From contig CACMRK010000004.1 of assembly GCA_902616075.1 (NCBI GenBank), positions 22,346 to 86,345 of the forward strand: a stretch of DNA of 64,000 bases, in the 5' to 3' direction. This document shows, piece by piece, positions 34,034 to 60,094 of the stretch (position 1 is the first letter of the stretch; each line of letters begins with the position of its first letter). Source of the stretch: an uncultured Alphaproteobacteria bacterium. GTDB taxonomy: Bacteria; Pseudomonadota; Alphaproteobacteria; HIMB59; GCA-002718135. A program made the position numbers and the translations under genes. The notes below the pieces were generated by a model. That model did not search any database. It was not told the origin of the DNA and was given only the letters and a program-made list of their open reading frames with translations.

Positions 34034-34039
34034 CTTAAA

Positions 34040-34069: not shown

Positions 34070-34084
34070 AATGAAGTATATTTT

Positions 34085-35131: not shown

Positions 35132-35171
35132 TATTCCCCTCCTAAATAAAAATTACATTAAATAAAATAAA

Positions 35172-39002: not shown

Positions 39003-39003
39003 T

Positions 39004-39924: not shown

Positions 39925-39926
39925 TT

Positions 39927-45351: not shown

Positions 45352-46965
45352 CTAGGAAGATCTTTTATTCAGAAGATTGGTTAGCCAATCAGGATCCATT
45401 TCTGGGACTGAAGACAATAAAAGTTCTGTATAATCAGGATATGGCGGATTCAAAATTTTACTTTTCAAACCCTGTTCCACTACCTCACCTTGATACATAA
45501 CAACTATTTCATCTGAGATTGCTTTAACCGTTGCTATATCATGTGTTATAAAAATATAAGTAACACCAAGATCTTTTTGTAATTTTTGGAGTAATTTTAA
45601 TATTCCTTCTTGAACAATTTGATCTAGCGCTGATGTTACTTCATCACAAATAATTAAATCTGGGTTAGCCGCTAAAGCTCTTGCAATGCATATTCTCTGT
45701 TTTTGACCTCCAGATAATTCGGATGGTAATCTATCTAAAAAAGTTTCATCTAGTTCAATCATTTTTAATAATTCAATAACTTTTGCTTCTCTTTCTTTCC
45801 CTTTTATACCTTGATAAAATTCTATTGGCCTTCCTATTATTTCATCAACAGTTTGACGGGGGTTCATTGCAGTATCAGGCATTTGAAAAATTATTTGAAT
45901 TCTTCTTAATTCTTCTTTTGACCTTTGTTCAAGTTTTGGAGACAATTTTTTTCCATCAAAAATTATTTCTCCTTTTAATTGAGGAAGTAAGCCTGTAATT
46001 ACTCTTGCTGTTGTTGATTTTCCTGATCCACTTTCGCCAACTATAGCTACTGTTTTACCTTTAGGAATATCTATAGAAACATTGTGTAAGACCTTAGATG
46101 AGCCATATGCTGCATCAATATTTTTAATGGACAACATATAATCTTCATTTGTTTCTTCAGGCTTGATCAGTGATCTTACTGACCATAGAGATTTAGTGTA
46201 TTCTTCTTTTGGGTTTGATAGCATATCTCTTGTTTCAGCTTCTTCAACTTCTTCACCGTATCGCAAAACTTTTATTCTATCAGCCATTTGAGCAACTACG
46301 GCTAAATCATGAGTAATATAAATTGCTGCTGTATTAAATTTGTCTACTATAGATCTCATAGCAGATAATACTTCTACTTGAGTAGTTACATCTAAGGCAG
46401 TAGTTGGTTCATCAAATATTATTAACTCTGGTCTTGGGGACATAGCCATAGCAGTCATTATTCTTTGAAGTTGGCCTCCTGATACTTGGTGCGGGTATCT
46501 ATCTCCTATATTTTCCGCATCTGGAAGCTGTAGTGATTCATAAAGTTGTACAGCATCTTTTTTTAATACATCCGTGGGATTTATCTTTAATCTATTAGCG
46601 GCACTTATTGTTTGATCCATTAATCTATGAGCAGGATTAAAAGATGCTGCTGCTGATTGAGCAACATAAGATATTTTAGTTCCCCAAATCTTTCTCTTTT
46701 CAAATTCAGTTAGTTTAGCGAGGTCTATGCCGTTAAAATTAATTTCTCCCTTTATAATCTTACAACCAGGTTGGGTATAGCCCATTGCAGCTTTACCCAT
46801 AGTAGATTTTCCGGCACCACTCTCTCCTATTAATCCTAGTATTTCTCCTCTGTGTAAAGTCAAATCTACACCTTTTAAAATTTTATGCCATCTCTCATCT
46901 GAAAATCCATCAATATGGATATTTTTCATTTCAAGTAGGAGTTCTTTTGATTTATTTGACGTCAT
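45352..46965 (-). CDS. ABC transporter ATP-binding protein, fused double ATPase (DppD-DppF/GsiA-like)
   Basis: Two Walker A sites (GESGAGKST, GESGSGKST), two signatures (VSGGQLQR, LSGGQKQR) and two Walker B sites. Confidence 0.9.
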   Translation of the reverse strand: MTSNKSKELLLEMKNIHIDGFSDERWHKILKGVDLTLHRGEILGLIGESGAGKSTMGKAAMGYTQPGCKIIKGEINFNGIDLAKLTEFEKRKIWGTKISYVAQSAAASFNPAHRLMDQTISAANRLKINPTDVLKKDAVQLYESLQLPDAENIGDRYPHQVSGGQLQRIMTAMAMSPRPELIIFDEPTTALDVTTQVEVLSAMRSIVDKFNTAAIYITHDLAVVAQMADRIKVLRYGEEVEEAETRDMLSNPKEEYTKSLWSVRSLIKPEETNEDYMLSIKNIDAAYGSSKVLHNVSIDIPKGKTVAIVGESGSGKSTTARVITGLLPQLKGEIIFDGKKLSPKLEQRSKEELRRIQIIFQMPDTAMNPRQTVDEIIGRPIEFYQGIKGKEREAKVIELLKMIELDETFLDRLPSELSGGQKQRICIARALAANPDLIICDEVTSALDQIVQEGILKLLQKLQKDLGVTYIFITHDIATVKAISDEIVVMYQGEVVEQGLKSKILNPPYPDYTELLLSSVPEMDPDWLTNLLNKRSS

Positions 46966-47872
46966 CTTTTAATCCGCTAGTAATGTAAAGATACCAATCA
47001 ACAACAAAATTAATTGATACACAAAGCAAAGCAATTGCAGCAGCTGGAATTAATGGTGTTAAACCTGCTGTTATATCATATTGTGCATATTGAATAAGTA
47101 TTGCATTTTCCCTCACCATTGATGCCCAATCTGCTGAAGGGGGTTGAATTCCAATTCCTAAAAAACTTAAACTAGATATTGTAAAAATTATAAATATGAA
47201 CCTTAAACCAAACTCAATAATCAAAGGTGAAGCTATATTAGGAAGTATTTCTCTGAAAATAATATATGATAAATTTTCACCTCTTAGCCTCGCGACCTCA
47301 ACATATTCTAGAACAACTTGACCAACAGCAACTGATCTTGATATTCTAAAAAATCTAGTTGATTCCAAAATTCCTAAAATGACAATTAAATTAAAATTAG
47401 TAGGTCCAAAAACTGATAAAAGTATAAATGTAAAAATCATTACAGGTATAGCCATAAGCGTGTCTACTATTCTACTTAATAGTTGATCTAAATACCTTCT
47501 ATCCAAAGCAGCTATAATTCCAAATACTGTTCCAATTCCTAAAGCAATAAAAGTAGCCAATAAACAAATACCAATTGTATTTCTTGCAGCATAGATAATG
47601 CGAGAAAAAATATCTCTTCCAATTTGATCAGTACCAAATATATGGCCATCACCCCAAGGAGCATAAGCTACTGGGAATATTTCTGCTTCTCCATGTGGAG
47701 CAATTAAGGGAGCAAATATTGCAGCAAAAAAATATATGAATAGTACAATCATACCAAACCAAGCTGAGATTGGAGCTTTTGATAAGGCAATTTTTAATCT
47801 TTCTAATCTAGTTCTTCTTTTGATTAAATTTGCAACTTCACTTTTTGCAGAATAAGATAAATTTTCGCTCAT
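46952..47872 (-). CDS. ABC transporter permease (DppC/OppC-like)
   Basis: Six TM segments. N-terminal extension followed by the GTDQIGRDIFSRIIYAARN motif typical of the DppC family. Confidence 0.85.
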   Translation of the reverse strand: MSENLSYSAKSEVANLIKRRTRLERLKIALSKAPISAWFGMIVLFIYFFAAIFAPLIAPHGEAEIFPVAYAPWGDGHIFGTDQIGRDIFSRIIYAARNTIGICLLATFIALGIGTVFGIIAALDRRYLDQLLSRIVDTLMAIPVMIFTFILLSVFGPTNFNLIVILGILESTRFFRISRSVAVGQVVLEYVEVARLRGENLSYIIFREILPNIASPLIIEFGLRFIFIIFTISSLSFLGIGIQPPSADWASMVRENAILIQYAQYDITAGLTPLIPAAAIALLCVSINFVVDWYLYITSGLKDDVK

Positions 47873-48867
47873 TTTGGGTATAGTAACCTTGGGTTAGAAA
47901 TAATGCCGATCAAGTCAGCAATTAAATTTAATATTACATATGTTGATGCAAAAATTAATGCACAAGCTTGAACAACAGGTAAATCTCGATTATAGACTGA
48001 TCCGACCATCAACCTACCAATACCTTGATAGTTAAAAACATATTCAACAACAACTGAGCCAATCAACATATAAGCTAAGTTTATTGCAATTACTTGAGAA
48101 ATAGGTGCCCAAGCATTTGGAAGTGCATGTTTAACAATTACCTCGTATCTAGAAGCTCCCGATAATTTTGCCATTTCAATATATTCACTTGATAAGATAT
48201 TTATTATCGCTGACCTTGTCATTCTCATCATGTGACCCATAGTAATTAATGTCAAAGTAAAAACTGGAAGAGCAGTCCTGTAAAATCTTTCAGCCAAAGT
48301 TGAAGCTTCATCCACATTAGAAATAGTTGGAAAAACTGGAAACAGTGTCGCTAGTAAAAGAATAAAAATATAGGCTGTAAAAAATTCTGGTGAAGATACG
48401 GTTACTAAGCTAACTCCAGTTGCTGACCTATCATAATAAGAGTTTCTGTATAATGCTGCTGAAATACCTAAGATTAAAGATAGAGGAATAGCCAACATGG
48501 CGGCAACCCCTGTTAAAAATAATGTATTCTTTAATCTGGGTACAATTAAACCAACAACTTCTCTGGACCTATCACCTTGATCCCCTTGAACTTTAGATCT
48601 TCCAGAGAAAGAACTACCAAAATCTCCTTGAAAAACATTTCCTAACCAATCAAAATATCTTGTGACTGGAGGTTTATCTAAACCCAATTCTGCTCTTAGA
48701 GCTTTTACTGCAGATTTTGTTGCACTTTGACCTAATATTTCCGTAGCAAAGTCTCCCGGTAAAAAAGAGAATGTACTAAATATTATTACCGAAAATGCAA
48801 AAACTGTAACGAGACCAAGACTAAGCCTTAACAAAATTGTTCTAAATATTGGATGAATTCTAGTAAT
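47869..48867 (-). CDS. ABC transporter permease (DppB/OppB-like); probable non-canonical ATT start
   Basis: The track ORF starts at TTG 48834, but the frame stays open upstream to 48891. A strong SD, AAGGAGG (48879-48873), lies 5 nt before ATT 48867-48865. A DppB-like N-terminus (…IFRTILLRLSLGLV) would be truncated by the TTG start. Confidence 0.7.
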   Translation of the reverse strand: MTRIHPIFRTILLRLSLGLVTVFAFSVIIFSTFSFLPGDFATEILGQSATKSAVKALRAELGLDKPPVTRYFDWLGNVFQGDFGSSFSGRSKVQGDQGDRSREVVGLIVPRLKNTLFLTGVAAMLAIPLSLILGISAALYRNSYYDRSATGVSLVTVSSPEFFTAYIFILLLATLFPVFPTISNVDEASTLAERFYRTALPVFTLTLITMGHMMRMTRSAIINILSSEYIEMAKLSGASRYEVIVKHALPNAWAPISQVIAINLAYMLIGSVVVEYVFNYQGIGRLMVGSVYNRDLPVVQACALIFASTYVILNLIADLIGIISNPRLLYPK

Positions 48868-49009
48868 ATTACCCTCCTTAAAGATACAATCTTAATTCTT
48901 AAAGTTTTGTCTAAATTAGGTCAACATGTAAGCTAAAATTAATAATTTATACGTTGAATTAAAACGTTATATATGTTTTTATATATTAACTTAAGTTTGT
49001 TTTTTGTTA

Positions 49010-49023
49010 AATTTCTAGAAATT
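49010..49023. promoter_or_regulatory. perfect 14-bp palindrome AATTTCTAGAAATT in the divergent transporter control region
   Basis: Read directly from the sequence. It lies 46 nt upstream of the SBP ATG (49069). Confidence 0.3.
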
Positions 49024-49025
49024 AT

Positions 49026-49050
49026 GAACAAAAATCTTAGGTTTTTGTTC
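49026..49050 (+). promoter_or_regulatory. 5'-UTR hairpin immediately upstream of the SBP Shine-Dalgarno
   Basis: GAACAAAAAT (49026-49035) pairs with GTTTTTGTTC (49041-49050) as 9 Watson-Crick pairs plus 1 G:U, with a 5-nt loop. The SD GGGAGG follows at 49059-49064. Confidence 0.4.
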
Positions 49051-49068
49051 AAGTATAAGGGAGGACAA

Positions 49069-50697
49069 ATGAAAAATAAGAAAATAGACAAATACATTGA
49101 AGAACAGTCTTCAAAGCTAACAAAAGGGCTTATTGATAGAAGACAGTTTATGATGTCTGTCCTTGCTACTGGGGTCACGCTTCCAATTGCATTATCATTA
49201 GCAGATAAAGCAGTTGCAGCTACACCAAAAAAAGGTGGACATTTAAGATGGGGTAATAGTGCAGCAGATGCAACTGATACTCTTGATCCAGCAACTTATC
49301 AGAGCTCATTTATGCAAGCTACTGCTTGGTCATATCAGAACTGTCTAACTGTTGTTGATTCTGATCACACAATTGTTGGAGAGCTTGCTGAGTCAATTGA
49401 ATCAGATGATGCTCAAACTTGGGTATATAATCTTCGCAAAGGTGTTGAATTCCATAATGGTAAATCAATGACAGCAGAAGATGTTGTGCTCAACTACCAG
49501 TATCATATGAATCCAGATACTGCTTCGGCAGCAGGCGGACTGTTATCTCAAATTGAGACAGTTTCTGCTGATGGAAATGACAGAGTTATTTTTAAGCTAA
49601 AAGGTGCAAATGCCGATTGGCCTGCAATAACTACTGACTATCATATTATGATTAAACCAACAAAAGATGGAGTTGTTGATGCTCAATCAACGATTGGAAC
49701 TGGTCCATATATTATGGATGAATTCAATCCTGGTGTTGGTGCAAAATTTGGAAAAAGAAATCCAAATTATTTCAAAGGTGATAGTGTTGCACACTTTGAT
49801 TCAGTTGAAGTAATTGGTATTAATGATCCTGCTACTAGACAAGCAGCATTATTAAACGGTGAAATTGATTGGATGAATGGTGTTGATCTTAGAACTGCTA
49901 ATCTATTAACTAGAAATCCTAGTGTAGAAATTACAGCAGCTTCTGGTTACGCTCACTATACAGCTCCAATGCGATTGAACGTTCCACCGTTTGATAACTT
50001 TGATGTACGTATGGCAATGAAGTTTGCAATTAAAAGACAGGAAATTGTTGATAAGATTATGCTTGGATATGGTACTGTTGGTAATGATCATCCGATCTCT
50101 ACTGCTCACCCATATCACAATAGCGCTTTAGAGCAGAGAGAGTTTGATGCTGATAAAGCTGCATATCACTGGAAAAAATCTGGTGTAAGTGGACCAATTG
50201 AAATTAGTACTTCAGAGGTTCCTTATGCAGGATGTACAGATGCAACAAACTTGATTGCAGCATCTGCCCAAGAATGTGGTATCGATCTTAGAGTTAAAAA
50301 AGAGCCTGAAGATGGTTACTGGAGTAACGTATGGAACACAAAAGGTTTCAGTATGAGTTCTTGGGGTGGAAGACCTACAGAGGATATGATGTGGTCTGCT
50401 GCATTCACAGATGACACTGAATGGAACGAAGCTGCATGGGGTAATCTAGTTCAAACTGATTCAACTGTTCGTTTCAATGAACTTGTTAGATCTGCTAGAT
50501 CAGAACTTGATGCAGAAAAAAGAAAATCAATGTACTGGGAAGCACAAGCACTTTGTAACTACGATGGTGGTGCAATTGTTTATGCATTTAACCAATACGT
50601 TGGTGCTGGTTCTAAAAAACTTGCTCACGGTGAAGATGTTGCTGGTAACTGGGAAAGTGACGGTAACAAACTTTCTGAACGTTGGTGGTTTGCATAA
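49069..50697 (+). CDS. ABC transporter substrate-binding protein, family 5 (DppA/OppA-like) with twin-arginine signal peptide
   Basis: I place the start at ATG 49069 (SD GGGAGG 4 nt upstream) rather than the track's 48973. Tat motif DRRQFMMSVLATGVTLPIALSLADKAVA|A. Family-5 SBP body. Visibly higher G+C and codon bias than its neighbours. Confidence 0.85.
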   Translation: MKNKKIDKYIEEQSSKLTKGLIDRRQFMMSVLATGVTLPIALSLADKAVAATPKKGGHLRWGNSAADATDTLDPATYQSSFMQATAWSYQNCLTVVDSDHTIVGELAESIESDDAQTWVYNLRKGVEFHNGKSMTAEDVVLNYQYHMNPDTASAAGGLLSQIETVSADGNDRVIFKLKGANADWPAITTDYHIMIKPTKDGVVDAQSTIGTGPYIMDEFNPGVGAKFGKRNPNYFKGDSVAHFDSVEVIGINDPATRQAALLNGEIDWMNGVDLRTANLLTRNPSVEITAASGYAHYTAPMRLNVPPFDNFDVRMAMKFAIKRQEIVDKIMLGYGTVGNDHPISTAHPYHNSALEQREFDADKAAYHWKKSGVSGPIEISTSEVPYAGCTDATNLIAASAQECGIDLRVKKEPEDGYWSNVWNTKGFSMSSWGGRPTEDMMWSAAFTDDTEWNEAAWGNLVQTDSTVRFNELVRSARSELDAEKRKSMYWEAQALCNYDGGAIVYAFNQYVGAGSKKLAHGEDVAGNWESDGNKLSERWWFA

Positions 50698-50713
50698 AAT
50701 ATTAATTTTCTTT

Positions 50714-50735
50714 GTGGCGCATTTAAATGCGCCAC
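50714..50735 (+). terminator. GC-rich hairpin (terminator/attenuator) after the SBP gene
   Basis: The 22-nt perfect palindrome GTGGCGCATTTAAATGCGCCAC sits 16 nt after the SBP stop, followed by a T-containing tract (ACTATTTCT). The next gene starts 26 nt downstream. Confidence 0.65.
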
Positions 50736-50761
50736 ACTATTTCTACTAATCTTCCAAAAAA

Positions 50762-51685
50762 ATGTTTTTAAAAAATAAGAAATACCTCTTTGATGGAGGT
50801 TCCGGTCAAACTTTAATGGAGATGGGTTTAGAGACAACAGGCGATCTTTGGTCAGCACAAGCTTTATTAAATGAAAATAATCACCAAATGGTCTTAGAAA
50901 TGCATAAAAATTTTATAAATGCTGGATCACAATTAATAGTCACTTCAAATTTTAGTGTTAGAAGGAGGCTATTAAAAAAATATAATTTACTTGATAAATT
51001 TGAATTTGGAATAAGATCTGCTGGATCACTAGCATTAAAAGCAAAAAATGAAAGTGATAAAAAAGTTATTGTTGCTGGCTCATTGCCAAATCAAGGTAAT
51101 ACATATTCCCCAATACATTTTGAAACTGATGAAACAATGTTTAATTATTTTCATGAAATTGCAAAAATATTAAATGATTATGTCGATATATTTTACTTAG
51201 ATGTTTTGTGTTCCATCAAAGAAATAAAAATTGCTCTAGAAGCTTCAAAAGAATTTAATAAACAAGTTCTTGTAGGTGTACACTTACGTTATGATGGAAA
51301 ATTACCATCTGGAGAAAGTCTTGATGAACTTTTTGAAACTATTCAAAAATTTAATTGTTGCGGCATAGTATCAGCCTGTGTATCGCCTGAAATTGTTAAT
51401 TTGAGTATTCCTATATTTAATAAACAAAAGCTTCCTTTTGGTTATAAAATGAATTTATTTAAAGAACTGCCTACTAGTAATAAAGAAAAATTTAATTCAG
51501 AGGGCTTTGAAGGACATTATGATTATATTGATCCCGTTGAGTTACTTGGAACTCGAAATGAAGAATTTGGAGAAGATAAATATAAAAAGTTTGTTTTAAA
51601 ATCTTTAAATGAAGGTGTTACTCTAGTTGGTGGATGCTGTGAAGTGAAGCCACGACATATTGAAGCTATTAAGAATTTATTTTAA
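50762..51685 (+). CDS. homocysteine S-methyltransferase family protein (BHMT/MmuM-like)
   Basis: Pfam S-methyl_trans pattern, including an N-terminal LFDGGSGQTL and the C-terminal zinc-ligand GGCCEVKPRHI. Confidence 0.75.
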   Translation: MFLKNKKYLFDGGSGQTLMEMGLETTGDLWSAQALLNENNHQMVLEMHKNFINAGSQLIVTSNFSVRRRLLKKYNLLDKFEFGIRSAGSLALKAKNESDKKVIVAGSLPNQGNTYSPIHFETDETMFNYFHEIAKILNDYVDIFYLDVLCSIKEIKIALEASKEFNKQVLVGVHLRYDGKLPSGESLDELFETIQKFNCCGIVSACVSPEIVNLSIPIFNKQKLPFGYKMNLFKELPTSNKEKFNSEGFEGHYDYIDPVELLGTRNEEFGEDKYKKFVLKSLNEGVTLVGGCCEVKPRHIEAIKNLF

Positions 51686-51726
51686 AATTTTTTTTTCATT
51701 ATTTTGTGATAAGTTGAATAAATTTT

Positions 51727-52956
51727 ATGGGAGATTTAATTAGTAATTACAGATTTGTCGTTAAGCCAGTTATTAAGGAAACTGGTAGATCTTTGGATTT
51801 GGCTAGGCCCATGAAAATACATCCTCTCACTTATCAAGAGTTACCACTCAACCCAGAATATACTAACTACGCCGATGGAAGATTTACGCTTGAAAAATTA
51901 TCTCATGCTACAGCAGATGAAATGTATTGGAAAGCTAGACAAGAAATAATTTTAAGACATACGGGCGAGCATCCATACGAAATTTCTGGTCCGGATGCTG
52001 AAAATTTACTTCAACAAATATTTCCTAGAGATATTTCAAAAGTAAAAATAGGACGATGTTCTTATCAATTTGCTTGTTATCATGATGGAGGAATGATTTC
52101 AGATGGATTATTATTAAGACTAGAAAAAAATAAATTTTGGTTTGCACAAGGTGATGGACATTTATACAGTTGGTACAAAGCTCATTCGAAAAATTTAGAT
52201 GTTGAAATTAAAGATCCAAATGTTTGGGTAAGTCAAATACAAGGACCTAAATCTCTAAAATTGTTAGAGAAACTAATTGATCAACCATTAAAAAATAATT
52301 TTAATTACTTTGATTGGATTGAAACTTCAATTGCTTCAGAAAAAGTAATTATAAGTAGAACAGGGTTTACGAATGAACTAGGTTGGGAAATTTATTTAAG
52401 GCCAGAAAATAATTCCAAAAAAATTGGGGACTTAATACTCAGTAAGGGTGAAGAAATGGGAATGATCCTAACAGCCTCTCCAGGGTTTAGATGTAGAAGA
52501 ATTGAGGCAGGTCTCTTATCTGCAGGGAGAGATTTTACAAGAGACAGATCTCCATTTGCTGTTGGATTAGGAAAATTTATAGATTTTAATAAGGGAGATT
52601 TTATTGGAAGAGATTATTTACTAAATACAAGCAAAGATTGTTTAACATGGGGTATGAGAGTGGAAAATAGTTTTGCATTGGTTGATTCTGAAATTTCTAT
52701 TAATAATAAAAAAGTTGGAATTGTAACTTCAAGTACATGGTCGCCATTTCAAGTTTGTGGTGTTGCTATAGTTCATATGGATAAAGCAGAATTTGGACCA
52801 GATACAATAGTAGATGTTAGATGCGATGATGGTACTTTACAAAAAGGTGAAATATGTACTTTACCAATGTATGATGAGAAAGGAGAAATACAAAGAGGTT
52901 TAAAAGAAAATATTCCATCTAGCCCTATACCTTGGAAGGGTATTTCAAAAAACTAA
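51727..52956 (+). CDS. GcvT-family (aminomethyltransferase fold) protein, LigM/DesA-like putative THF-dependent demethylase
   Basis: 409 aa with GcvT-fold motifs (ISGPDAENLL, VSQIQGPKS, ISRTGFTNELGWEIY, RIEAGLLSAGRDF). The N-terminal PEYTNY...W region resembles LigM-type demethylases, from my recollection. Confidence 0.6.
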   Translation: MGDLISNYRFVVKPVIKETGRSLDLARPMKIHPLTYQELPLNPEYTNYADGRFTLEKLSHATADEMYWKARQEIILRHTGEHPYEISGPDAENLLQQIFPRDISKVKIGRCSYQFACYHDGGMISDGLLLRLEKNKFWFAQGDGHLYSWYKAHSKNLDVEIKDPNVWVSQIQGPKSLKLLEKLIDQPLKNNFNYFDWIETSIASEKVIISRTGFTNELGWEIYLRPENNSKKIGDLILSKGEEMGMILTASPGFRCRRIEAGLLSAGRDFTRDRSPFAVGLGKFIDFNKGDFIGRDYLLNTSKDCLTWGMRVENSFALVDSEISINNKKVGIVTSSTWSPFQVCGVAIVHMDKAEFGPDTIVDVRCDDGTLQKGEICTLPMYDEKGEIQRGLKENIPSSPIPWKGISKN

Positions 52957-53004
52957 TATATTTTGTAATAGAATTATAAATTATATTAGAATACAAATAT
53001 TAAA

Positions 53005-54168
53005 ATGAATGATCTCATTAAACCTAGCAATAAAATCCATACAATAGATGATGCAATAAGATTATCTAAAAAAAGATTACCAAAATTAGTCTTTGACTTT
53101 ATTGATGGAGCATCAGGAGATGACAAACTTGCAGAAATTAATAGTACAGCATTAGATCAAATTAGACTTGAGCCTAAGGTTTTTAGAAATGTTGAGAATA
53201 GAAATTTAAGTAAAAAAATATTTGATTTTCATTTTGATTATCCATTTGGATTTGCACCAATGGGAATGACAAATCTTTCATGGCCTGATGCAGATAAAAT
53301 GATAGCAAAAGAAAGTGCGTATAATAATATTCCAACATGTGTTTCAATGGCTTCTAGTACTACGTTAGAAGATATGTTTACTTTTTCAGAAGGTCATTCG
53401 TGGATGCAAATATATATTTTTCAAAGTGAAGAATTTATTATGGAATTATTAAAAAGAGCAGAAAGTATTGGATACAAGGTCTTGATCCTCACTGTTGATG
53501 TTCCAATTCTTTCAAGAAGAGCTAGAGATGATAGAAATGGCTTTGGTTATCCATTTAAAATTGGCCCAAAACAATTTTTAGATTTTGCACTACATCCTCA
53601 ATGGAGTTTAACAACTTTGTTTAAAGGCGCTCCACAACCAATGAATTATGTTACCTCTAAAAGTGGTGATCAAATTTTTAGACGAAAAGAAAGTAGAGGA
53701 GCAACTGATTGGAGTACTCTAAAAAGGGTTCGAGAGGCTTGGAAAGGAAAATTAATAATCAAAGGAGTAATGAATTCTGAAGATGCTTTGAAAATTAAAG
53801 AGGCTGGTGCTGATGCAATTCAAGTATCAAATCATGGTGGAAGGCAATTAGATAGTGCTACTGCTTCTATTAATGCTTTGCCATTAATACGAAAAGCTTT
53901 GGGAGACGATTTTCCAATACTTTTTGATAGTGGCATTAGAAGTGGTAGTGATATTTTACGAGCATTAGCTCTGGGAGCTAACTTTGTTATGTTTGGCAGA
54001 CCTTTAATGTATGCTATTGGAGCAGATGGTGCAAGAGGTCTTAGAAGAATCATTAACCTAATTAAAGAAGAGTTAAGTACAAATCTTGGCTTAGTGGGAT
54101 TAACCGATATAAATGAAGTTGATAAAAAAATTATAGCAGAGAAATTTTTTAAGGATATAAAGTACTAA
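53005..54168 (+). CDS. FMN-dependent alpha-hydroxy acid dehydrogenase/oxidase (LldD/glycolate oxidase/MdlB family)
   Basis: TIM-barrel FMN motifs (LTVDVPILSRRARD, SNHGGRQLD, GIRSGSDILRALALGA). Confidence 0.85.
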   Translation: MNDLIKPSNKIHTIDDAIRLSKKRLPKLVFDFIDGASGDDKLAEINSTALDQIRLEPKVFRNVENRNLSKKIFDFHFDYPFGFAPMGMTNLSWPDADKMIAKESAYNNIPTCVSMASSTTLEDMFTFSEGHSWMQIYIFQSEEFIMELLKRAESIGYKVLILTVDVPILSRRARDDRNGFGYPFKIGPKQFLDFALHPQWSLTTLFKGAPQPMNYVTSKSGDQIFRRKESRGATDWSTLKRVREAWKGKLIIKGVMNSEDALKIKEAGADAIQVSNHGGRQLDSATASINALPLIRKALGDDFPILFDSGIRSGSDILRALALGANFVMFGRPLMYAIGADGARGLRRIINLIKEELSTNLGLVGLTDINEVDKKIIAEKFFKDIKY

Positions 54169-54169
54169 G

Positions 54170-55912
54170 ATGGGAGATAAAAAGATTAGAGGTGGGGCAT
54201 TAGTTGCAAGAGCTCTTAGAGACAAAGGTATTGATAATGTTTTTACACTTTCTGGAGGTTTTTGTAATCCGGCACTTGAAGGATTTATGGAGTGTCAAAT
54301 TAATGTAATTAATTGTCCTCATGAACAAATTGCTGGTCATTTAGCTGATGGTCATACCAGAATATCAAGAAAACCATCCGTTTGTATTGTGGGGCCCGAA
54401 GGTTTTGCAAATGCAGTACCCTCAATGATGGAAGCTTGGGGTGAAAGATCACCTGTTATTTTTATAACTGGATCAAGTAGTTTAAAAAGACAAGGAGCAG
54501 GCGGTTTTAAGGAAATAGATGATGTATCTATTGCAGCACCGTTAACAAAATACAGTGCAAGTATAACAGATGGCAACAGAATAAGAGAGTTCGTAGATAA
54601 AGCATATAGAATTGCAACAAATGGCTATCCTGGTGCAGTACATTTAAGTGTACCAGTAGATATAATGTTTTCATCATTTGCAGATGATGCAGGTTTAGAA
54701 GAAAGACCTTTTACTCATCAAAAGAAACCTTTAGCAAAAGCTTGGCCTGATCCTGAGAGTTTAAATGAAATATTTGATCTAGCAATTAGTGCACAAAAAC
54801 CTGTTTTTATAGGAGGGCATGGAGTTTGGTGGTCTAGTGCGGAACAAAAATTAGAACAAGCTGGGTTTGAATTAAATATTCCAATATTTAATATACCATA
54901 CCACCAAAAACTTTTAGGTGAAGAGGCAAATACATATATGGGTCTTGCAGATATTCATCAATACCCTCCATCAAAAATGGCTCTTCATGAATCAGATTTG
55001 GTTCTTATGATTGGTGCACGTCTTGATAATCAAATGAATTTTGGTAATCCTCCACTTTTTCCAAAAAGCACAAAGCTTGTTTGTATTAATGGATCACATG
55101 AAGAAATAGAATTAAATAGAGCTGCAGATATTAATTTACTTTGTGACCCTGGAGTCTTTTTGGATAAACTCTTAGAATTAAAGAAAAATAGTAAATGGAA
55201 ATTAAATAATGAATGGTTTGATAAGAATAAAAAAGAGAAAAAAAATTGGATTGATAAAACATTAGATGATTTAAATAAAGAAACTGAAGAGGCTAAAAAA
55301 AAAGGTGGAAAAATTCATCCTCTTCAGTTAGCTTTAGATGTTCAAGAAGTATTAACTGAAAATGATTGGTTAGTTATTGATGGTGGAAACACACATTTCT
55401 GGTCTGAGATTGCAATTAATATTGCTGGATCAAAAGGTAAAAAACTTGGAGGAATATTACATCCAGGTACTTTTAGTATGTTAGGTGTTGGAGTTCCTTT
55501 TGCAGTATCAGCGAAAAATCTTAATCCTAAATCTAATGTTGTTTTAATAAGTGGAGATGGTGCATTTTTATCTGGCGGATTATCAATTGAAGCTGCATTT
55601 CAAGAAAAAAAACCTATTGTTGTAGTTATCGATAACAATGGAGGTCTTGACTGTATTTCTCAACAACAAGAAAGGTTGTTTGAAAGTGGGAAACACTTTG
55701 CAACTGATTTTAGAGATATTCCATTTCATTCAATTTTTGAGGGTTTTGGAGGACATGGAGAATTAGTTACTAAAAGAGAAGATTTAGGCCCCGCTTTAAA
55801 AAGAGCGTTAAAAAGTGGTAAAACTGCATGTGTAAATGTTAAGGCTAAAGGTGTTATAAGTCCAATAGTTGCTGCAGTTAGTGATAAAAGAGATAAAGCG
55901 TCTATAGAGTAG
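54170..55912 (+). CDS. thiamine-diphosphate-dependent enzyme (ALS/BFD/Oxc superfamily; 2-oxoacid decarboxylase or 2-hydroxyacyl-CoA lyase-like)
   Basis: N-terminal PYR domain with catalytic HEQ, a GGFKEID motif, and the ThDP-binding motif GDGAFLSGG...NNGG. Starts 1 nt after the FMN enzyme gene. Confidence 0.8.
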   Translation: MGDKKIRGGALVARALRDKGIDNVFTLSGGFCNPALEGFMECQINVINCPHEQIAGHLADGHTRISRKPSVCIVGPEGFANAVPSMMEAWGERSPVIFITGSSSLKRQGAGGFKEIDDVSIAAPLTKYSASITDGNRIREFVDKAYRIATNGYPGAVHLSVPVDIMFSSFADDAGLEERPFTHQKKPLAKAWPDPESLNEIFDLAISAQKPVFIGGHGVWWSSAEQKLEQAGFELNIPIFNIPYHQKLLGEEANTYMGLADIHQYPPSKMALHESDLVLMIGARLDNQMNFGNPPLFPKSTKLVCINGSHEEIELNRAADINLLCDPGVFLDKLLELKKNSKWKLNNEWFDKNKKEKKNWIDKTLDDLNKETEEAKKKGGKIHPLQLALDVQEVLTENDWLVIDGGNTHFWSEIAINIAGSKGKKLGGILHPGTFSMLGVGVPFAVSAKNLNPKSNVVLISGDGAFLSGGLSIEAAFQEKKPIVVVIDNNGGLDCISQQQERLFESGKHFATDFRDIPFHSIFEGFGGHGELVTKREDLGPALKRALKSGKTACVNVKAKGVISPIVAAVSDKRDKASIE

Positions 55913-55915
55913 GTT

Positions 55916-56251
55916 ATGGCAATTTTTTCTACACATTTACTAAACTCAATAGATGGCACGCATGCGAGTGATGTAGAAATTGTTATTTATAAAGTAAATA
56001 ATAATAACAAAGTTGTATTTCTAGAAGATAAAACAGATAGTTCTGGAAGAATGCTTAAAGAATTTGAATTAACGAAAGAAGATTGTGAAAGTGATTATGA
56101 AATGATAATTAATTCTGGTAAATATTTTAGAAATACTAGTGAAATAATTAATTCAATCAGTGTTAAATTTAAAATGAAAGATCCTCTTAAAAAATATCAC
56201 ATACCTTTAATTGTTTCTCCAAATGGATACTCAATATGGTGGTCTAAATAA
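55916..56251 (+). CDS. transthyretin-like protein (HIU-hydrolase fold) lacking the C-terminal YRGS signature
   Basis: 111 aa aligning to the HIUase pattern: STHLLN (cf. THILD), SSGR (cf. DGR) and KYHIPLIVSPNGY (cf. HYHIPLLLSPFGY). It ends in SIWWSK instead of (T/V)YRGS. Confidence 0.7.
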   Translation: MAIFSTHLLNSIDGTHASDVEIVIYKVNNNNKVVFLEDKTDSSGRMLKEFELTKEDCESDYEMIINSGKYFRNTSEIINSISVKFKMKDPLKKYHIPLIVSPNGYSIWWSK

Positions 56252-56252
56252 A

Positions 56253-57374
56253 ATGAGTAATTCAGGATTAAACATGTCTAGACGCATTAGGAGGACTCCC
56301 TATACCGAGAAAGTAATTGAGGCTGGTGTAAGTGGTTTTACTGTAGTTAATCATATGCTTCTTCCAAAATCATATAAAGCAACAGTTGAAGAAGATTATT
56401 GGCACTTATCTAAAAATACTCAAATTTGGGATGTTTCATGTCAACGACAGGTTCAAATAATAGGAGAAGATGCTACAGAATTAATACAACTCATGTCTCC
56501 AAGGTCAATAAAAGATATGCCTATTGGTAAATGTTACTATTATCCAATGATAGATGAAAATGCAGGGATGATAAATGATCCTGTACTTTTAAAATTAAGT
56601 GAAAATAAATATTGGCTATCAGTTGCAGATTCAGATGTCCTTCTTTGGTCAAAAGGATTGGCTGTAGGAAGAAATTTTAAAGTTGATATTATAGAGCCAG
56701 ATATTTATCCCTTAGCAATTCAAGGTCCAAAATCTGAAAAATTAATGTCATCAATATTTGGAGAAAAAATTAAAAAATTAAAATTCTTTCATTTTTCTTT
56801 TTTTGAATTTGAAGGAACAAAACAGATAATTGCAAGATCAGGATATAGCAAACAAGATGGTTTTGAGATTTACCTTAAAGGTTTTAGTTTAGGAAAAAAA
56901 CTTTGGGAAACTATTTGGGAAGCAGGAAAAGATTTTAATATTTCACCTGGATGTCCAAATTTAATTGATAGAATAGAAGGTGGTTTATTATCCTATGGTA
57001 ATGAATTTACTTTAGAAAATAATCCAATTGAATGTGGATTTGATAATTATTGTAACAATTTATCTCATGATTTCATTGGAAAAAATGCATTAAAAAAAAT
57101 ATTAAAAAATGGAATAGAAAAAAAAATAAAAGGAATTACTTTTGATGGGTCCCCGACTCCTTCGTGTACAATACCTTTTCCTGTATACTCAAAAAATAGA
57201 TTTCAAATTGGTAATATCACCTCTGGTATTTATTCACCATTTTTAAAAACCAATATTGGGCTATCAATGGTTGATAGAGACTATTGGAATGATGGGCAGG
57301 ATGTTATCGTATTAACACCAGACAACATTGAGAGAAAAGGTAAAGTGTGCTCACTACCTTTTAATTATTCTTAA
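56253..57374 (+). CDS. dmdA: DMSP demethylase-like GcvT-family protein (DmdA-like)
   Basis: Start set at ATG 56253 (MSNSGLNMSRRIRRTPYT), 1 nt after the previous stop. DmdA-like blocks from my recollection of SAR11 DmdA are NHMLLP, EEDYWHL, QIWDVSCQRQVQIIG, GKCYYYPMIDENAGMINDPVLLKL, ARSGYSKQDGFEIY and PGCPNLIDRIEGGLLSYGNEF. Confidence 0.65.
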   Translation: MSNSGLNMSRRIRRTPYTEKVIEAGVSGFTVVNHMLLPKSYKATVEEDYWHLSKNTQIWDVSCQRQVQIIGEDATELIQLMSPRSIKDMPIGKCYYYPMIDENAGMINDPVLLKLSENKYWLSVADSDVLLWSKGLAVGRNFKVDIIEPDIYPLAIQGPKSEKLMSSIFGEKIKKLKFFHFSFFEFEGTKQIIARSGYSKQDGFEIYLKGFSLGKKLWETIWEAGKDFNISPGCPNLIDRIEGGLLSYGNEFTLENNPIECGFDNYCNNLSHDFIGKNALKKILKNGIEKKIKGITFDGSPTPSCTIPFPVYSKNRFQIGNITSGIYSPFLKTNIGLSMVDRDYWNDGQDVIVLTPDNIERKGKVCSLPFNYS

Positions 57375-57375
57375 A

Positions 57376-57822
57376 ATGAGTCATTCAATCGAATTAAAGT
57401 GGGAATTAGGAGATCAAAAACTCGAATTTGGAAAATACTTAACTGATCACACAGTAATGCTTAATGAAAATGTATCTATTGATGCAGGATCATCTCCAGA
57501 TTATGGAGGAAGCGAAACTAATATTAATCCAGAGCAAAAACTAGCTGCAGCTGTAAGTAGTTGTTTTATGATGACGTTTTTAGCTTTAGCTGCAAAAATG
57601 AAATGGCCAGTTATTAATTACAAAGATAAAGCAATTTCGTATTTAGGAAAAAATGCAGAGGGGAGAATGTACGTTAACAAAATAGAGCTAAATCCAGCTA
57701 TAGTATTTGAAGATAATTTTAATATTTCTGATGAAGAAATGAAAAAGATGAAAGAGAGATCACATAAGTATTGTTTTATAGCTAATTCACTATCCAAAGA
57801 TGTTGAAATTCAAATCAATTAA
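57376..57822 (+). CDS. OsmC/Ohr family protein
   Basis: Start set at ATG 57376 (MSHSIELKW). OsmC-fold pattern with two Cys (AAVSSCFMMTF, HKYCFIANS). Confidence 0.7.
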   Translation: MSHSIELKWELGDQKLEFGKYLTDHTVMLNENVSIDAGSSPDYGGSETNINPEQKLAAAVSSCFMMTFLALAAKMKWPVINYKDKAISYLGKNAEGRMYVNKIELNPAIVFEDNFNISDEEMKKMKERSHKYCFIANSLSKDVEIQIN

Positions 57823-58614
57823 ATGAATTTTAATCTAATATTAAACGAAAAAAATAATAATATTTTTAATATTATTCTTAATGACCAGAGAAACCAAAAT
57901 ACTTTAAGCGAAAACATGATCAATGAATTAACATCAGCACTAGACATCGCTGATAAAGATAATGATGTAAAAGTAATTATTTTATCATCAAACGGTAATA
58001 TTTTTTGTGCAGGACATAATTTAAAAGATTTAAATTCACAAAGATTGCAAAATGACAAAGGTGAAAGCTATTTTAAAAAAATATTTCAAATGTGCTCTCA
58101 ACTTATGCTGAAAATTAATAAAAATAATAAACCAGTTATAGCTATGGTTGATGGTATTGCTACTGCAGCAGGCTGTCAGTTAATTTCTAGCTGTGATTTA
58201 GCTTACTCAAGTAACAGAGCAAAATACGCAACCCCTGGTGTTAATATTGGATTATTTTGTTCTACACCAATGGTTCCATTATCAAGAACTGTAGGGAAAA
58301 AGCAAGCAATGGAAATGCTTCTCACTGGAGATCTTATAGATGCAAATAAAGCATTAAGGATTGGTTTAATAAATGATGTCTTTGAAGAAGATAGTTTAAA
58401 AGAAAATGTATTTCAAATTGCTAAAAAAATATCATCTAAATCTTCTAATACTATTAAAATTGGTAAAGAAGCTTTTTACAAACAAAAAGATATGAATTTA
58501 GAAGATGCATATACTTTTACTTCAAATGTAATGACGGAAAATATGCTAAATGATGATTCCAAGGAAGGTATTGAAGCTTTTTTAGAAAAAAGAGAGCCAA
58601 ACTGGAAAGAATAA
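57823..58614 (+). CDS. enoyl-CoA hydratase/isomerase (crotonase) family protein, ECHDC3-like
   Basis: Crotonase motifs (FCAGHNLKDL, VIAMVDGIATAAGCQL, EGIEAFLEKREPNW). It has 0 nt spacing to the OsmC-like gene. Confidence 0.8.
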   Translation: MNFNLILNEKNNNIFNIILNDQRNQNTLSENMINELTSALDIADKDNDVKVIILSSNGNIFCAGHNLKDLNSQRLQNDKGESYFKKIFQMCSQLMLKINKNNKPVIAMVDGIATAAGCQLISSCDLAYSSNRAKYATPGVNIGLFCSTPMVPLSRTVGKKQAMEMLLTGDLIDANKALRIGLINDVFEEDSLKENVFQIAKKISSKSSNTIKIGKEAFYKQKDMNLEDAYTFTSNVMTENMLNDDSKEGIEAFLEKREPNWKE

Positions 58615-58621
58615 TTACTTC

Positions 58622-60094
58622 TTAAAATGGGTTTGGTTGTGATGGATTGGTTGCTAACCATGTAGATTTAGTTTGCATGTAACTTTGCATTCCCTCCCAT
58701 CCATTTTCACGACCGTATCCTGATTGCTTAAAACCTCCAACTGGAGATTGAGTAGAAGCATTAAAATAATTATTTATATAAACAGTTCCAGCCTCTATCT
58801 TATCTGCTAAACGTATAGCTTTATTAGTATCCTTAGTCCAAATACCTGCCGCAAGTCCATAAATAGTATCGTTTGCAATTTTAATTACTTCATCTTCATT
58901 ATCCCAAGATTGTATTGAGGCGACAGGTCCAAATACTTCATTTTGAGCTAAATCATCTTCATTTGGAACATTATCAAAAATAGTTGGTCCAATATAGTAC
59001 CCTTCAGATTTTTGTTCTTTTCTTCCATCAATTAATAATTTTAAACCTCTTTTTTCAGCCGCTTCTATCTTAGATAAAATAAAATCATATTGCTCTTTAT
59101 TTGCTATAGGTCCTATTTGTGTTGCAACATCATTTGGGTGACCAACTTTAGCCTTTTTAACAACTTCTAATAAATTATGAGTAAATTTATCTTTTATATC
59201 TTTATGCACTAGTATCCTTGATCCTGAAATACAACTATGGCCTGAAACTGGAAATATACCTGAAACAACTCCATTTACTGATAAAGTTAAATCAGCATCT
59301 TTAAATATAATTTGTGGTGATTTACCCCCTAACTCCATAATAATAGGTTTAACATTTTTTGATGCACTTAAACTTGCTGCACTCCCCCCTTTTGTTCCAC
59401 CTGTAAAACTTATCATTCTAACATCTTGGTGTTCAATAAGAGGTGCTCCGGTTGTAGGACCAAAACCAGTAACAACATTAATCAAACCTTCTGGAAGATC
59501 CGCTTCTTCTAAAATTTTCATTAACTCTAATGTAGAGCATGATGCTCTTTCTGAAGGTTTAATTACAACAGTATTACCTGCTGCTATTGCCGGTGCTAAT
59601 TTCCAGATTAATGTTCCAATTGGTGAGTTCCAAGGTAGAATGAGTGCAACAACTCCAAATGGTTCCCATTTTAAATAATTATGCATATTTGGAACTTCGG
59701 AAGGTATCAGTCTACCTTCATACTTGTCACACATGCCTGCATAATAATAAAAACTCTCAGTCTGCCAGCTGGTTAAAGAAGGAGTGATATTTTTTGGAAG
59801 TTTGCCGTTATCTTTAGTTTCTATTTGCCCAATACGTTCTGCATTTTTAGCAATAATATCTCCAATTCTAGTTAACGTTCTCCCTCTTTCTGCTGGATGC
59901 ATTTTACCATAAGGACCATCATAATAAGCCTGTTTAGCAGATGATACCGCGAGATTAATATCTTTTTCATTACAATCAGGAACCTTTGCCCATACTTTAC
60001 CTATAGATGGATCCTCACTTTCAAAATATTTTTCAGAAGAAGGGTCATGCCATTTATTTCCTGCATAAAATTTGTAGGTTTGAGTTTCAGACAT
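58622..60094 (-). CDS. NAD(P)-dependent aldehyde dehydrogenase (betaine-aldehyde dehydrogenase-like)
   Basis: ALDH motifs ELGGKSP, FTGGTKGG, a catalytic Cys context (GHSCISGSRILV) and EVFGPV. Confidence 0.88.
   Translation of the reverse strand: MSETQTYKFYAGNKWHDPSSEKYFESEDPSIGKVWAKVPDCNEKDINLAVSSAKQAYYDGPYGKMHPAERGRTLTRIGDIIAKNAERIGQIETKDNGKLPKNITPSLTSWQTESFYYYAGMCDKYEGRLIPSEVPNMHNYLKWEPFGVVALILPWNSPIGTLIWKLAPAIAAGNTVVIKPSERASCSTLELMKILEEADLPEGLINVVTGFGPTTGAPLIEHQDVRMISFTGGTKGGSAASLSASKNVKPIIMELGGKSPQIIFKDADLTLSVNGVVSGIFPVSGHSCISGSRILVHKDIKDKFTHNLLEVVKKAKVGHPNDVATQIGPIANKEQYDFILSKIEAAEKRGLKLLIDGRKEQKSEGYYIGPTIFDNVPNEDDLAQNEVFGPVASIQSWDNEDEVIKIANDTIYGLAAGIWTKDTNKAIRLADKIEAGTVYINNYFNASTQSPVGGFKQSGYGRENGWEGMQSYMQTKSTWLATNPSQPNPF

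Follow-up and report, generated by a model that had tools for sequence, protein, structure and literature searches.

We describe a gene module that links an FMN-dependent 2-hydroxyacid dehydrogenase, a thiamine diphosphate (ThDP)-dependent enzyme and a transthyretin-like protein (together, the trio) to a methyltransferase of the DmdA family of dimethylsulfoniopropionate (DMSP) demethylases. The module was found in a stretch of 64,000 nucleotides from an uncultured alphaproteobacterium (contig CACMRK010000004.1), referred to here as the window, and its genes retain their order and spacing from one bacterial class to another, in genomes of 29-65% G+C. Each component is of a known enzyme family; what is new is the linkage among them, along with the clade of the ThDP enzyme, the transthyretin subfamily and the separate clade of DmdA. 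In the literature searched, also on the use of 4-dimethylsulfonio-2-hydroxybutyrate (DMSHB) or 4-methylthio-2-hydroxybutyrate (MTHB) by Pelagibacter and on the HTCC1062 genes next to dmdA, we found no description of this gene combination. The interpretation that we favor, tentatively and at somewhat less than an even chance, is that the module serves the catabolism of an imported methyl-sulfonium 2-hydroxy or 2-oxo acid, combining chemistry like that of the mandelate pathway with the harvest of a methyl group.

The module lies within a run of eight co-directional open reading frames on the plus strand at 50762-58614, all of which are present as a preliminary description of this DNA, made from the sequence alone, had reported:

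50762..51685, plus strand: gene 1, homocysteine S-methyltransferase-domain protein (BHMT/MmuM-like), a lineage-variable accessory (Pfam S-methyl_trans, 140 bits)
51727..52956, plus strand: gene 2 ('GcvT2'), GcvT-family tetrahydrofolate (THF)-binding aminomethyl/methyltransferase (Pfam GCV_T)
53005..54168, plus strand: gene 3, core gene 1, membrane-type FMN-dependent L-2-hydroxyacid dehydrogenase (MdlB/LldD-like; Pfam FMN_dh)
54170..55912, plus strand: gene 4, core gene 2, ThDP-dependent enzyme; its clade is narrow, highly conserved and related to 2-hydroxyacyl-CoA lyase (HACL)/HACS and oxalyl-CoA decarboxylase (OXC); three TPP Pfam domains
55916..56251, plus strand: gene 5, core gene 3, protein of the transthyretin/5-hydroxyisourate hydrolase (HIUase) fold with a C-terminal W-W-S in place of YRGS (Pfam Transthyretin, 70.7 bits)
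56253..57374, plus strand, ATG start: gene 6, core gene 4, a methyltransferase of the DmdA family that is THF-dependent and paralogous to the canonical SAR11 dmdA (NCBIfam DmdA)
57376..57822, plus strand, ATG start: gene 7, OsmC/Ohr-family thiol peroxidase-like protein, a lineage-specific accessory (Pfam OsmC, 57.6 bits)
57823..58614, plus strand: gene 8, ECHDC3-like crotonase (enoyl-CoA hydratase family), a lineage-specific accessory (NCBIfam PRK08139)

The family assignments of the preliminary description held overall, with refinements for gene 2 (nearer to DmdA and Tdm), gene 3 (a dehydrogenase), gene 4 (related to HACL and OXC) and gene 6 (above the DmdA cut-off). The gaps between the last six genes, taken from ATG starts that match the N-termini of homologues, were 1, 3, 1, 1 and 0 nt, in agreement with the values given earlier, and spacing ahead of gene 3 was looser, with 64, 41 and 48 nt at the first three junctions. 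In the gene calls of public assemblies gene 6 begins at 56223, which produces a 29-nt overlap with gene 5; translational coupling is compatible with either start. The G+C content is about 29% across the window, and the region is present as an identical copy on two SAR11 single-cell genome assemblies.

In a scan with one genome per species, at least 599 stretches matched the ThDP-clade pattern and at least 541 were confirmed. The synteny comparison was carried out with the best 80 loci, all of them SAR11, against the proteins of the window. Every one of the 80 loci that was long enough contained the order FMN dehydrogenase, ThDP enzyme, transthyretin-like protein and DmdA-like protein. The gap between the first two genes was 0-6 nt in 75 of 77 loci, the next was 1-9 nt in 82 of 82, and the third did not exceed 22 nt in any locus having both genes. 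As the accessory genes vary between SAR11 clades, we conclude that the conserved unit comprises four genes, not six or eight. The expectation that a six-gene core would be syntenic in related genomes was therefore borne out for four of its genes, which also recur in other classes; the OsmC and crotonase genes were limited to the window's own clade (ThDP enzyme at least 96% identical). The possibility that all eight genes form one fixed operon was rejected on synteny. GcvT2, which had been counted in the same operon, is located on the upstream side of the core in almost every SAR11 locus, with 61-66% identity between clades, and is cut off from the core by an opposite-strand gene in locus L047.

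Pelagibacter-type clades, in which the ThDP enzyme is 82-88% identical to that of the window (HIMB1709 and Uisw_090 included), have a variable homocysteine methyltransferase gene, GcvT2, a peptidase-S51-like gene, the core and a thiolase gene. The thiolase gene occupies the position of the window's crotonase gene, after the DmdA-like gene, and in one such genome is followed by an aminotransferase gene. The peptidase-S51-like gene (dipeptidase E/cyanophycinase family) overlaps the start of the FMN dehydrogenase gene (L047 8156-8845; L061 8148-8843; L036 8124-8837). Together with the thiolase and a Dpp-type transporter, this peptidase hints at a peptide-like or amide-linked substrate.

Loci outside SAR11 were obtained by a search with a distant homologue, after which the contigs of the matches were examined. 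This yielded nine module contexts, given here in gene order with TTR denoting the transthyretin-like gene:

L147/L152, Arenicellales nBUS_48 (Gammaproteobacteria), 49% G+C: D-2-hydroxyacid dehydrogenase; FMN_dh, ThDP, TTR and GCV_T; then SDR and GST, with TauD farther on
L148, Pelagibius sp. Alg239-R121, 58% G+C: FMN_dh, ThDP, TTR and GCV_T; convergent TRAP DctPQM and LysR; ApbA and MttB nearby
L150/L154, 63% G+C: MttB; SBP5 ABC transporter, FMN_dh, ThDP, TTR, GCV_T, mandelate-racemase family and DAO
L156, 59% G+C: ApbA and MttB, divergent from FMN_dh, ThDP, TTR and GCV_T
L155, 45% G+C: FMN_dh, ThDP, TTR, homocysteine S-methyltransferase and beta-hydroxyacid dehydrogenase
L151, 64% G+C: the trio with TRAP and LysR and without a methyltransferase
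L153, 65% G+C: the trio with TRAP and LysR and without a methyltransferase

The four-gene core is thus present in Arenicellales, in Pelagibius and in three further proteobacterial contigs (59-63% G+C). A DmdA-like gene directly follows the transthyretin-like gene in six of the nine contexts, and a methyl-removing enzyme of either type does so in seven. The fourth position in L155 is taken by a homocysteine S-methyltransferase, a distant homologue of gene 1, and this swap is a functional substitution. These contexts, together with the SAR11 loci, show an invariant trio, after which the next gene nearly always encodes an enzyme for moving a methyl group from an onium donor to THF or homocysteine. 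The trio can also stand alone, because L151 and L153 carry it without an adjacent methyltransferase. In L151 (12179-13318) the position after the transthyretin-like gene is filled by a 379-aa secreted protein without a Pfam or NCBIfam match.

Orthologs of an MttB-family (non-pyrrolysine) methyltransferase, 62-77% identical to one another, lie beside the module in three loci (L148 16523-19062; L150 138-1721; L156 4031-6536), paired in two of them with a ketopantoate-reductase-family (KPR/ApbA) gene that is 68% identical. Neither MttB nor KPR-family homologues were found in the window or the SAR11 loci.

Gene 3 reached the cut-off of Pfam FMN_dh (PF01070) with 397 bits and aligned end to end with (S)-mandelate dehydrogenase (6bfg). 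Because this alignment spans the membrane-binding segment, gene 3 is assigned to the quinone-linked dehydrogenase type rather than to the soluble oxidases; the earlier label of 'oxidase-like' had correctly named an FMN 2-hydroxyacid enzyme and missed its type. The catalytic His, two Arg, Lys and Tyr residues are kept, with the motifs SNHGGRQL, KG(V), RxxD and QxY invariant among module orthologs, and identity to the window protein across the non-SAR11 taxa is 43-54%. The LldD cut-offs were missed (NF033901 and NF008398; 225.8 and 269.5 bits versus 550 and 376, respectively). A Tyr-to-Phe replacement at the position of mandelate dehydrogenase Tyr26 was considered as a signature of the module's dehydrogenase and rejected, as this position varies between F, A and Y among the module orthologs.

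The arrangement of the first two core genes resembles that of the mandelate pathway of Pseudomonas putida (MdlA racemase, MdlB FMN (S)-mandelate dehydrogenase, MdlC ThDP benzoylformate decarboxylase and MdlD aldehyde dehydrogenase), in which a membrane-type FMN dehydrogenase gene is also found directly upstream of the ThDP gene. The window adds a nearby aldehyde dehydrogenase (ALDH) gene, and L150/L154 add a mandelate-racemase-family gene. The mandelate-pathway logic proposed in the preliminary description is mirrored by the neighbors of the trio in other taxa, which include a D-2-hydroxyacid dehydrogenase, KPR-family reductases and the mandelate-racemase-family gene. With the DAO-family oxidases also encoded there, and with the intact catalytic residues of gene 3, these neighbors point to a hub of 2-hydroxy and 2-oxo acid metabolism. 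However, the ThDP enzyme of the module is nearest to HACL and OXC and is not a relative of benzoylformate decarboxylase, which was absent from the 60 best solved relatives of gene 4. Unlike the mandelate pathway, the module has no conserved ALDH and integrates a transthyretin-fold protein and a methyltransferase, and an aromatic substrate is unlikely.

Over its full length, gene 4 had HACL/HACS and OXC as its best solved relatives (8vzc, 7pt2 and 2c31; 190 bits), followed by benzaldehyde lyase (161 bits) and acetolactate synthase (ALS; up to 132 bits). The ThDP motifs are kept, with the catalytic Glu52, G462-D463-G464 and N489-N490 (GDG...NN) invariant in an alignment of the clade, and conservation of the C-terminal tail extends as far as its final residue (...SIE). 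In contrast to this likeness, identity to anything outside the clade did not exceed 33%, no CoA-activating enzyme is conserved alongside gene 4, and every curated family cut-off was missed by more than two-fold. The scores were 243 bits versus 600 for HACL (NF058623), 204 versus 557 for OXC (NF006721) and 233 versus 538 for TIGR00118, one of the ALS models, all of which were missed. The gene that follows encodes the transthyretin-like protein, not an ilvN/ilvH small subunit. Among 1.84 billion representative proteins, three full-length relatives had more than 35% identity (68, 48 and 35-36%), and the orthologs from Arenicellales, Pelagibius and the high-GC genomes were 68-73% identical to gene 4. 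A homologue search with the window protein listed 120 matches, which are uninformative on diversity because all were at least 98% identical. From these comparisons gene 4 is judged to represent a new ThDP clade that is nearest to HACL and OXC and distinct from ALS.

Protein P0123, which is 47% identical to the ThDP enzyme of the window, was considered as a member of the module and rejected on its context, which consists of an SDR, the ThDP enzyme, a 4HBT thioesterase and a split transketolase. A cluster of this type, with a split transketolase-like E1, is found at L149 9158-14166 and on the JGI contig of P0123, and suggests that the wider ThDP clade works with thioesters. Apart from generic ThDP enzymes at about 31% identity, a metagenome scan with P0123 returned almost nothing, and L083 and L116 showed just a TRAP-transporter neighborhood.

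The relationship of gene 4 to HACL leads to an explanation that we consider improbable, namely that the module carries out alpha-oxidation at the CoA level. The ThDP enzyme would then be a true 2-hydroxyacyl-CoA lyase, converting 2-hydroxyacyl-CoA to formyl-CoA and an aldehyde one carbon shorter. Its substrate could be derived from a 3-substituted acid barred from normal beta-oxidation, such as methylmercaptopropionate (MMPA) or DMSP, and the crotonase or thiolase and the ALDH could complete the route. In addition to the identity of the best solved relatives and the 243-bit HACL score, the conservation of the tail to its end is as expected for a lid, and CoA enzymes adjoin the module (crotonase in the window, thiolase in Pelagibacter, and the 4HBT thioesterase by the P0123 paralog). 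However, the HACL and OXC cut-offs are widely missed, and neither an acyl-CoA ligase nor a CoA-transferase or 2-hydroxylase is conserved with the module. Most non-SAR11 contexts are also without CoA enzymes, and the FMN dehydrogenase, which acts on free 2-hydroxy acids, would be redundant.

The transthyretin-like protein encoded by gene 5 belongs to the same fold family as HIUase (2g2n, 2h0e). Alignment with E. coli HIUase (2g2n) revealed that the active-site His, Arg and His residues are kept, as S-H-x-L, G-R and [YC]-H-x-P in all orthologs. In contrast, the HIUase Tyr-Arg-Gly-Ser signature is replaced: gene 5 ends in ...YSIWWSK, and the tail Y-[ST]-x-W-[WYC]-S, in which Trp is followed by Trp, Tyr or Cys and then Ser, was present in every ortholog from SAR11, Arenicellales, Pelagibius and the other taxa, even though the non-SAR11 proteins are 27-36% identical to that of the window. 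Gene 5 is also below the HIUase cut-off (TIGR02962; 70.6 versus 87.45 bits, with orthologs at 63.9 and 80.5) and lacks purine-catabolic neighbors. The product of HIUase, formed by the opening of an alpha-hydroxy amide, is an alpha-hydroxy acid and belongs to the class of compounds on which the FMN dehydrogenase acts, and paired Trp residues are typical of onium-binding sites. By analogy, we conjecture that the transthyretin-like protein is integral to the module, either as a catalyst or as a binder of a ligand, with a hydrolase favored, and the Trp-Trp tail could bind an onium head group.

These results bear on the simplest explanation, in which the genes would be what their public records call them. 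The names in those records are 'acetolactate synthase', '5-hydroxyisourate hydrolase' and 'glycine cleavage system aminomethyltransferase T', and the module would accordingly consist of ALS, L-lactate dehydrogenase, the HIUase of purine catabolism and DMSP demethylase, adjacent through the compactness of SAR11 genomes. Apart from these matching names, the results argue against this explanation, which we regard as very improbable. The preliminary description had pointed out that placement of the FMN and ThDP enzymes within characterised housekeeping subfamilies would count against a dedicated pathway; both were below every curated LldD, ALS, OXC and HACL cut-off. The HIUase signature is replaced in every ortholog, neither uricase, OHCU decarboxylase nor an ALS small subunit is encoded nearby, and the retention of order and spacing across classes over 29-65% G+C goes beyond chance adjacency.

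Gene 6 exceeded the cut-off of the NCBIfam DmdA model NF009133 (531.6 versus 410 bits). Module-linked orthologs scored 530-580 bits with this model and the characterised DmdA of HTCC1062 scored 634. Gene 6 is 49% identical to the latter (PDB 3TFH). Its identity to module-linked genes from other classes is 52-58%, and that of those genes to 3TFH is 43-49%. The canonical dmdA is found in another conserved block, consisting of sdh, asd, dmdA, acyl-CoA genes and leuBDC, and adjoins mhpC, fadD (dmdB) and mmgC (dmdC) (PMC3160333); neither dmdB nor dmdC lies near gene 6. Pelagibacter genomes have one to three dmdA copies (bioRxiv 10.64898/2026.04.03.716430). On sequence comparison, the DmdA-like genes of the module are best described as an orthologous group of their own, to which the characterised DmdA does not belong as an ortholog. 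The earlier label of 'DmdA-like' was correct as to family; the paralogy to the canonical gene had not been recognized. As all copies pass the NCBIfam model, annotation and gene-count surveys do not separate them.

The module shares with the DMSP demethylation pathway (DmdA, DmdB and DmdC, plus DmdD/AcuH) both the DmdA family, as assigned by the curated model, and, in our proposal, the THF-dependent harvest of a methyl group from a sulfonium compound. The crotonase could fill a role like that of DmdD/AcuH. The known pathway differs in making no use of the 2-hydroxyacid and ThDP chemistry with which gene 6 is linked.

Another explanation, unlikely in our view although it accounts for several of the results, is that two functions lie side by side. 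The trio would degrade a small non-methylated 2-hydroxy acid, such as glycolate or glyoxylate, imported by TRAP or ABC transporters, and the DmdA-like gene would encode an ordinary DMSP demethylase that is co-regulated with the trio on algal exudates. L-hydroxyacid oxidases oxidise glyoxylate thiohemiacetals, and in one version of this scheme the dehydrogenase would convert such a thiohemiacetal to an oxalyl thioester, the OXC-like enzyme would produce a formyl thioester and the transthyretin-like protein would hydrolyze it to formate. The trio without a methyltransferase in L151 and L153, once inside a LysR-DctPQM operon, is as this explanation predicts, and so are the proximity of the ThDP enzyme to the thioester-acting OXC and HACL and the score of gene 6 above the DmdA cut-off. 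A tartronate-semialdehyde-reductase-family (NAD_binding_2) gene downstream in L155 and a family III CoA-transferase gene 5 kb upstream in Arenicellales can be added to these points. On the other hand, a methyl-removing enzyme follows the trio in all of the 80 SAR11 loci that are long enough and in seven of the nine other contexts, with its type swapped in L155, and MttB-family genes recur by the module. Furthermore, the DmdA-like genes form a group apart from canonical DmdA, which SAR11 already encodes elsewhere, and no CoA ligase or CoA-transferase is conserved with the trio.

Transporters of types that handle carboxylates or peptide-like solutes accompany the module in several lineages. The TRAP DctP binding proteins encoded next to the trio, or in one operon with it, are orthologous at 57% identity. 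The family-5 solute-binding protein (SBP5) by the Pelagibacter module is orthologous to that of L150 (63% G+C), with 57-59% identity. The SBP5 of the window is only about 30% identical to these two and is a different protein. A PDB search with the TRAP binding protein gave only weak matches (72 bits) to structural-genomics entries, from which no ligand can be inferred. From the presence of orthologous transporters of both types we infer that the substrate is imported and is a carboxylate.

Our favored interpretation, the catabolism of an imported methyl-sulfonium 2-hydroxy or 2-oxo acid, would proceed as follows. An imported 2-hydroxy or 2-oxo carboxylate bearing a DMSP-related methyl-sulfonium group would lose one methyl group, which the DmdA paralog would pass to THF or the BHMT-like enzyme to homocysteine, in the latter case yielding methionine. 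The FMN dehydrogenase would turn the 2-hydroxy acid into the 2-oxo acid and pass electrons to the quinone pool, and the ThDP enzyme would decarboxylate or cleave the 2-oxo acid, as in the mandelate pathway. The product would be processed further by the convergent ALDH and the crotonase in the window's lineage, or by the thiolase in Pelagibacter. The transthyretin-like protein would be an integral component, a hydrolase being favored by analogy with HIUase. Gene content, family placement, cofactor and catalytic motifs, the paralogy of the DmdA-like gene and the conserved order and spacing were observed; the action of all four genes on one substrate, the sequence of reactions, the presence of a sulfonium group and any part played by the transthyretin-like protein are inferred.

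Our first candidates for the substrate are DMSHB, which is possible, and MTHB, together with S-methylmethionine through a shared 2-oxo acid; thio-glycolate species derived from dimethylsulfonioacetate (DMSA) are the second. Characterised DmdA rejects DMSA, and a separate demethylation or demethiolation route for DMSP analogues such as this one has been postulated without known genes (PMC7221440). The module is a concrete candidate for the enzymes by which bacteria demethylate and demethiolate such analogues. The suggestion of DMSHB or MTHB fits the DmdA family, the BHMT-like alternative, and the D-specific dehydrogenases and racemase-family gene of other taxa. It also fits the DAO-family and aminotransferase genes, whose products could supply the shared 2-oxo acid from S-methylmethionine or methionine.

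Several points weigh against this interpretation. No ALDH is conserved with the module, although the product of a decarboxylase would need one, and this applies equally to DMSHB and MTHB. L151 and L153 have the trio with TRAP and LysR genes and no adjacent methyltransferase, and gene 6 may simply demethylate DMSP, because it passed the DmdA model. Among characterised enzymes, those nearest to the ThDP enzyme act on CoA thioesters rather than free 2-oxo acids, and CoA enzymes recur nearby (crotonase, thiolase, and a thioesterase in the P0123 subfamily). Family-5 solute-binding proteins do not typically serve in the transport of osmolytes. A stereochemical difficulty for DMSHB in SAR11 is that enzymes of the FMN_dh family are L-specific, whereas algal DMSHB is reported to be the D-isomer. 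Finally, the role of the transthyretin-like protein is conjecture, and the DMSHB/MTHB scheme gives its gene none.

A broader form of the proposal, which we consider somewhat unlikely, is that the module specifies an undescribed, globally abundant pathway of SAR11, Arenicellales and other marine bacteria for a DMSP relative that canonical DmdA cannot use. It would comprise a DmdA paralog with a new specificity, a new ThDP clade and a new catalytic class of the transthyretin fold with an onium-recognising Trp-Trp tail. DMSHB, the oxo acid derived from S-methylmethionine, dimethylsulfonioacetate and gonyol are candidates for the compound. SAR11 depends on reduced organic sulfur, and its dmdA genes serve worldwide as a basis for budgeting the flux of DMSP away from climate-active dimethyl sulfide (DMS). 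The substrate of one Pelagibacter 'dmdA' copy may not be DMSP, because this copy sits in a separate four-gene module that spans classes; if the broader proposal is true, a sizeable share of the 'dmdA' counts in ocean metagenomes does not report DMSP demethylation. New enzymology is offered by the very conserved ThDP clade (68-73% identity between genomes of 29% and 65% G+C) and by the transthyretin-fold subfamily with its replaced active-site tail. Exact copies of the protein sequences of gene 5 and the OsmC gene were found on at least 999 and at least 1000 public contigs, respectively, with sources that include Tara, JGI, ENA and Logan, indicating that the window's lineage and its operon are very abundant in ocean data.

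The remaining genes of the run are accessory. Gene 1 shares with the betaine, thetin and S-methylmethionine:homocysteine methyltransferases (BHMT/MmuM) the homocysteine S-methyltransferase domain and the zinc Cys triad (Cys...GGCC). It differs from them in falling below every NCBIfam BHMT/MmuM cut-off (86-87 bits versus 215-453) and in being restricted to some lineages, as among the SAR11 loci compared it was present only in the window's clade and in L036/L037. Gene 2 scored 180 bits with the NCBIfam models of both DmdA and Tdm (C-terminal domain; trimethylamine N-oxide demethylase), under the cut-off in each case, and 62 bits with LigM. The earlier assignment of gene 2 to the GcvT family therefore stands, with gene 2 nearer to DmdA and Tdm than to LigM. 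GcvT2 was not found in the non-SAR11 module contexts examined. Gene 7 contains two Cys residues and missed the OsmC subfamily cut-offs. Gene 8 met the PRK08139 cut-off (369.8 versus 313 bits), and its best PDB match was human ECHDC3 (2vx2).

The flanking features named in the preliminary description, a solute-binding protein gene with a twin-arginine signal, an attenuator-like hairpin and a convergent ALDH and GMC pair, were all found, and an ABC transporter lies beyond them:

45352..48834, minus strand: ABC transporter genes, with a fused double ATPase at 45352-46965 and permeases at 46952-47872 and 47869-48834, divergent from the solute-binding protein gene
48973..50697, plus strand: family-5 (Opp/Dpp/Nik-type) solute-binding protein with the twin-arginine signal DRRQFMMS
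50713..50736, plus strand: GC-rich hairpin with a 10-bp stem, a 4-nt loop and a weak T-rich tail, between the solute-binding protein gene and gene 1
58622-60094, minus strand: ALDH, convergent on the operon and below the betaine-aldehyde dehydrogenase (BADH) cut-off (456 versus 669)
60144-61781, minus strand: GMC oxidoreductase, convergent on the operon and below the BetA cut-off (451 versus 732)

The ABC transporter genes, in which two Pfam ABC_tran domains and BPD_transp_1 were detected on the identical single-cell genome locus, are conserved alongside the operon within the window's clade. An internal Met is probably the true start of the solute-binding protein. The hairpin has a free energy of -16.9 kcal/mol (z = -4.0), with none of 200 shuffled sequences equally stable, and from its sequence would be terminator- or attenuator-like. 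The exact stem was found again in 25 related loci, which adds little because those genomes are nearly identical in nucleotides. The ALDH and GMC proteins resemble betaine-aldehyde and choline dehydrogenases, respectively, while remaining under both cut-offs. The pair is lineage-specific, being conserved solely within the window's clade. An Rfam scan of the entire window revealed no riboswitch ahead of the operon; its only match was a tRNA gene (14629-14710, minus strand). A scan for sigma-70 promoters gave fewer matches in the real sequence than in shuffled sequences and is therefore uninformative on internal promoters.

Other catabolic genes occur farther out. A second GMC oxidoreductase gene and an SDR gene (42683-45066) are directly upstream of the ABC transporter genes, and the region thus encodes two choline-dehydrogenase-like GMC enzymes, under the BetA cut-off where tested. 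Genes for a beta-keto acid cleavage enzyme (BKACE), a 3-hydroxyacyl-CoA-dehydrogenase-family protein and an MDR oxidoreductase lie beside that of an ScfR-type regulator (38112-40934 and 40935-42374). The first two resemble the carnitine dehydrogenase/dehydrocarnitine cleavage pair, which suggests a unit for the catabolism of a carnitine-like betaine 10 kb upstream of the operon. What looks like an agmatine-to-putrescine route is encoded at 32966-37009, where an agmatine deiminase (PAD_porph), a carbon-nitrogen hydrolase (N-carbamoylputrescine amidase-like), a PotD-like binding protein and an ABC ATPase were identified. A PAD_porph gene is likewise found 10 kb upstream of the module in Arenicellales, probably by coincidence. 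On the other side of the operon, MaoC-like and PrpD-family genes (61841-63981) are followed, past the right end of the window (L001 15889-16907), by a gamma-butyrobetaine-hydroxylase-like/TauD dioxygenase gene and an EamA exporter gene. A TauD-family gene is located downstream of the module in Arenicellales as well.

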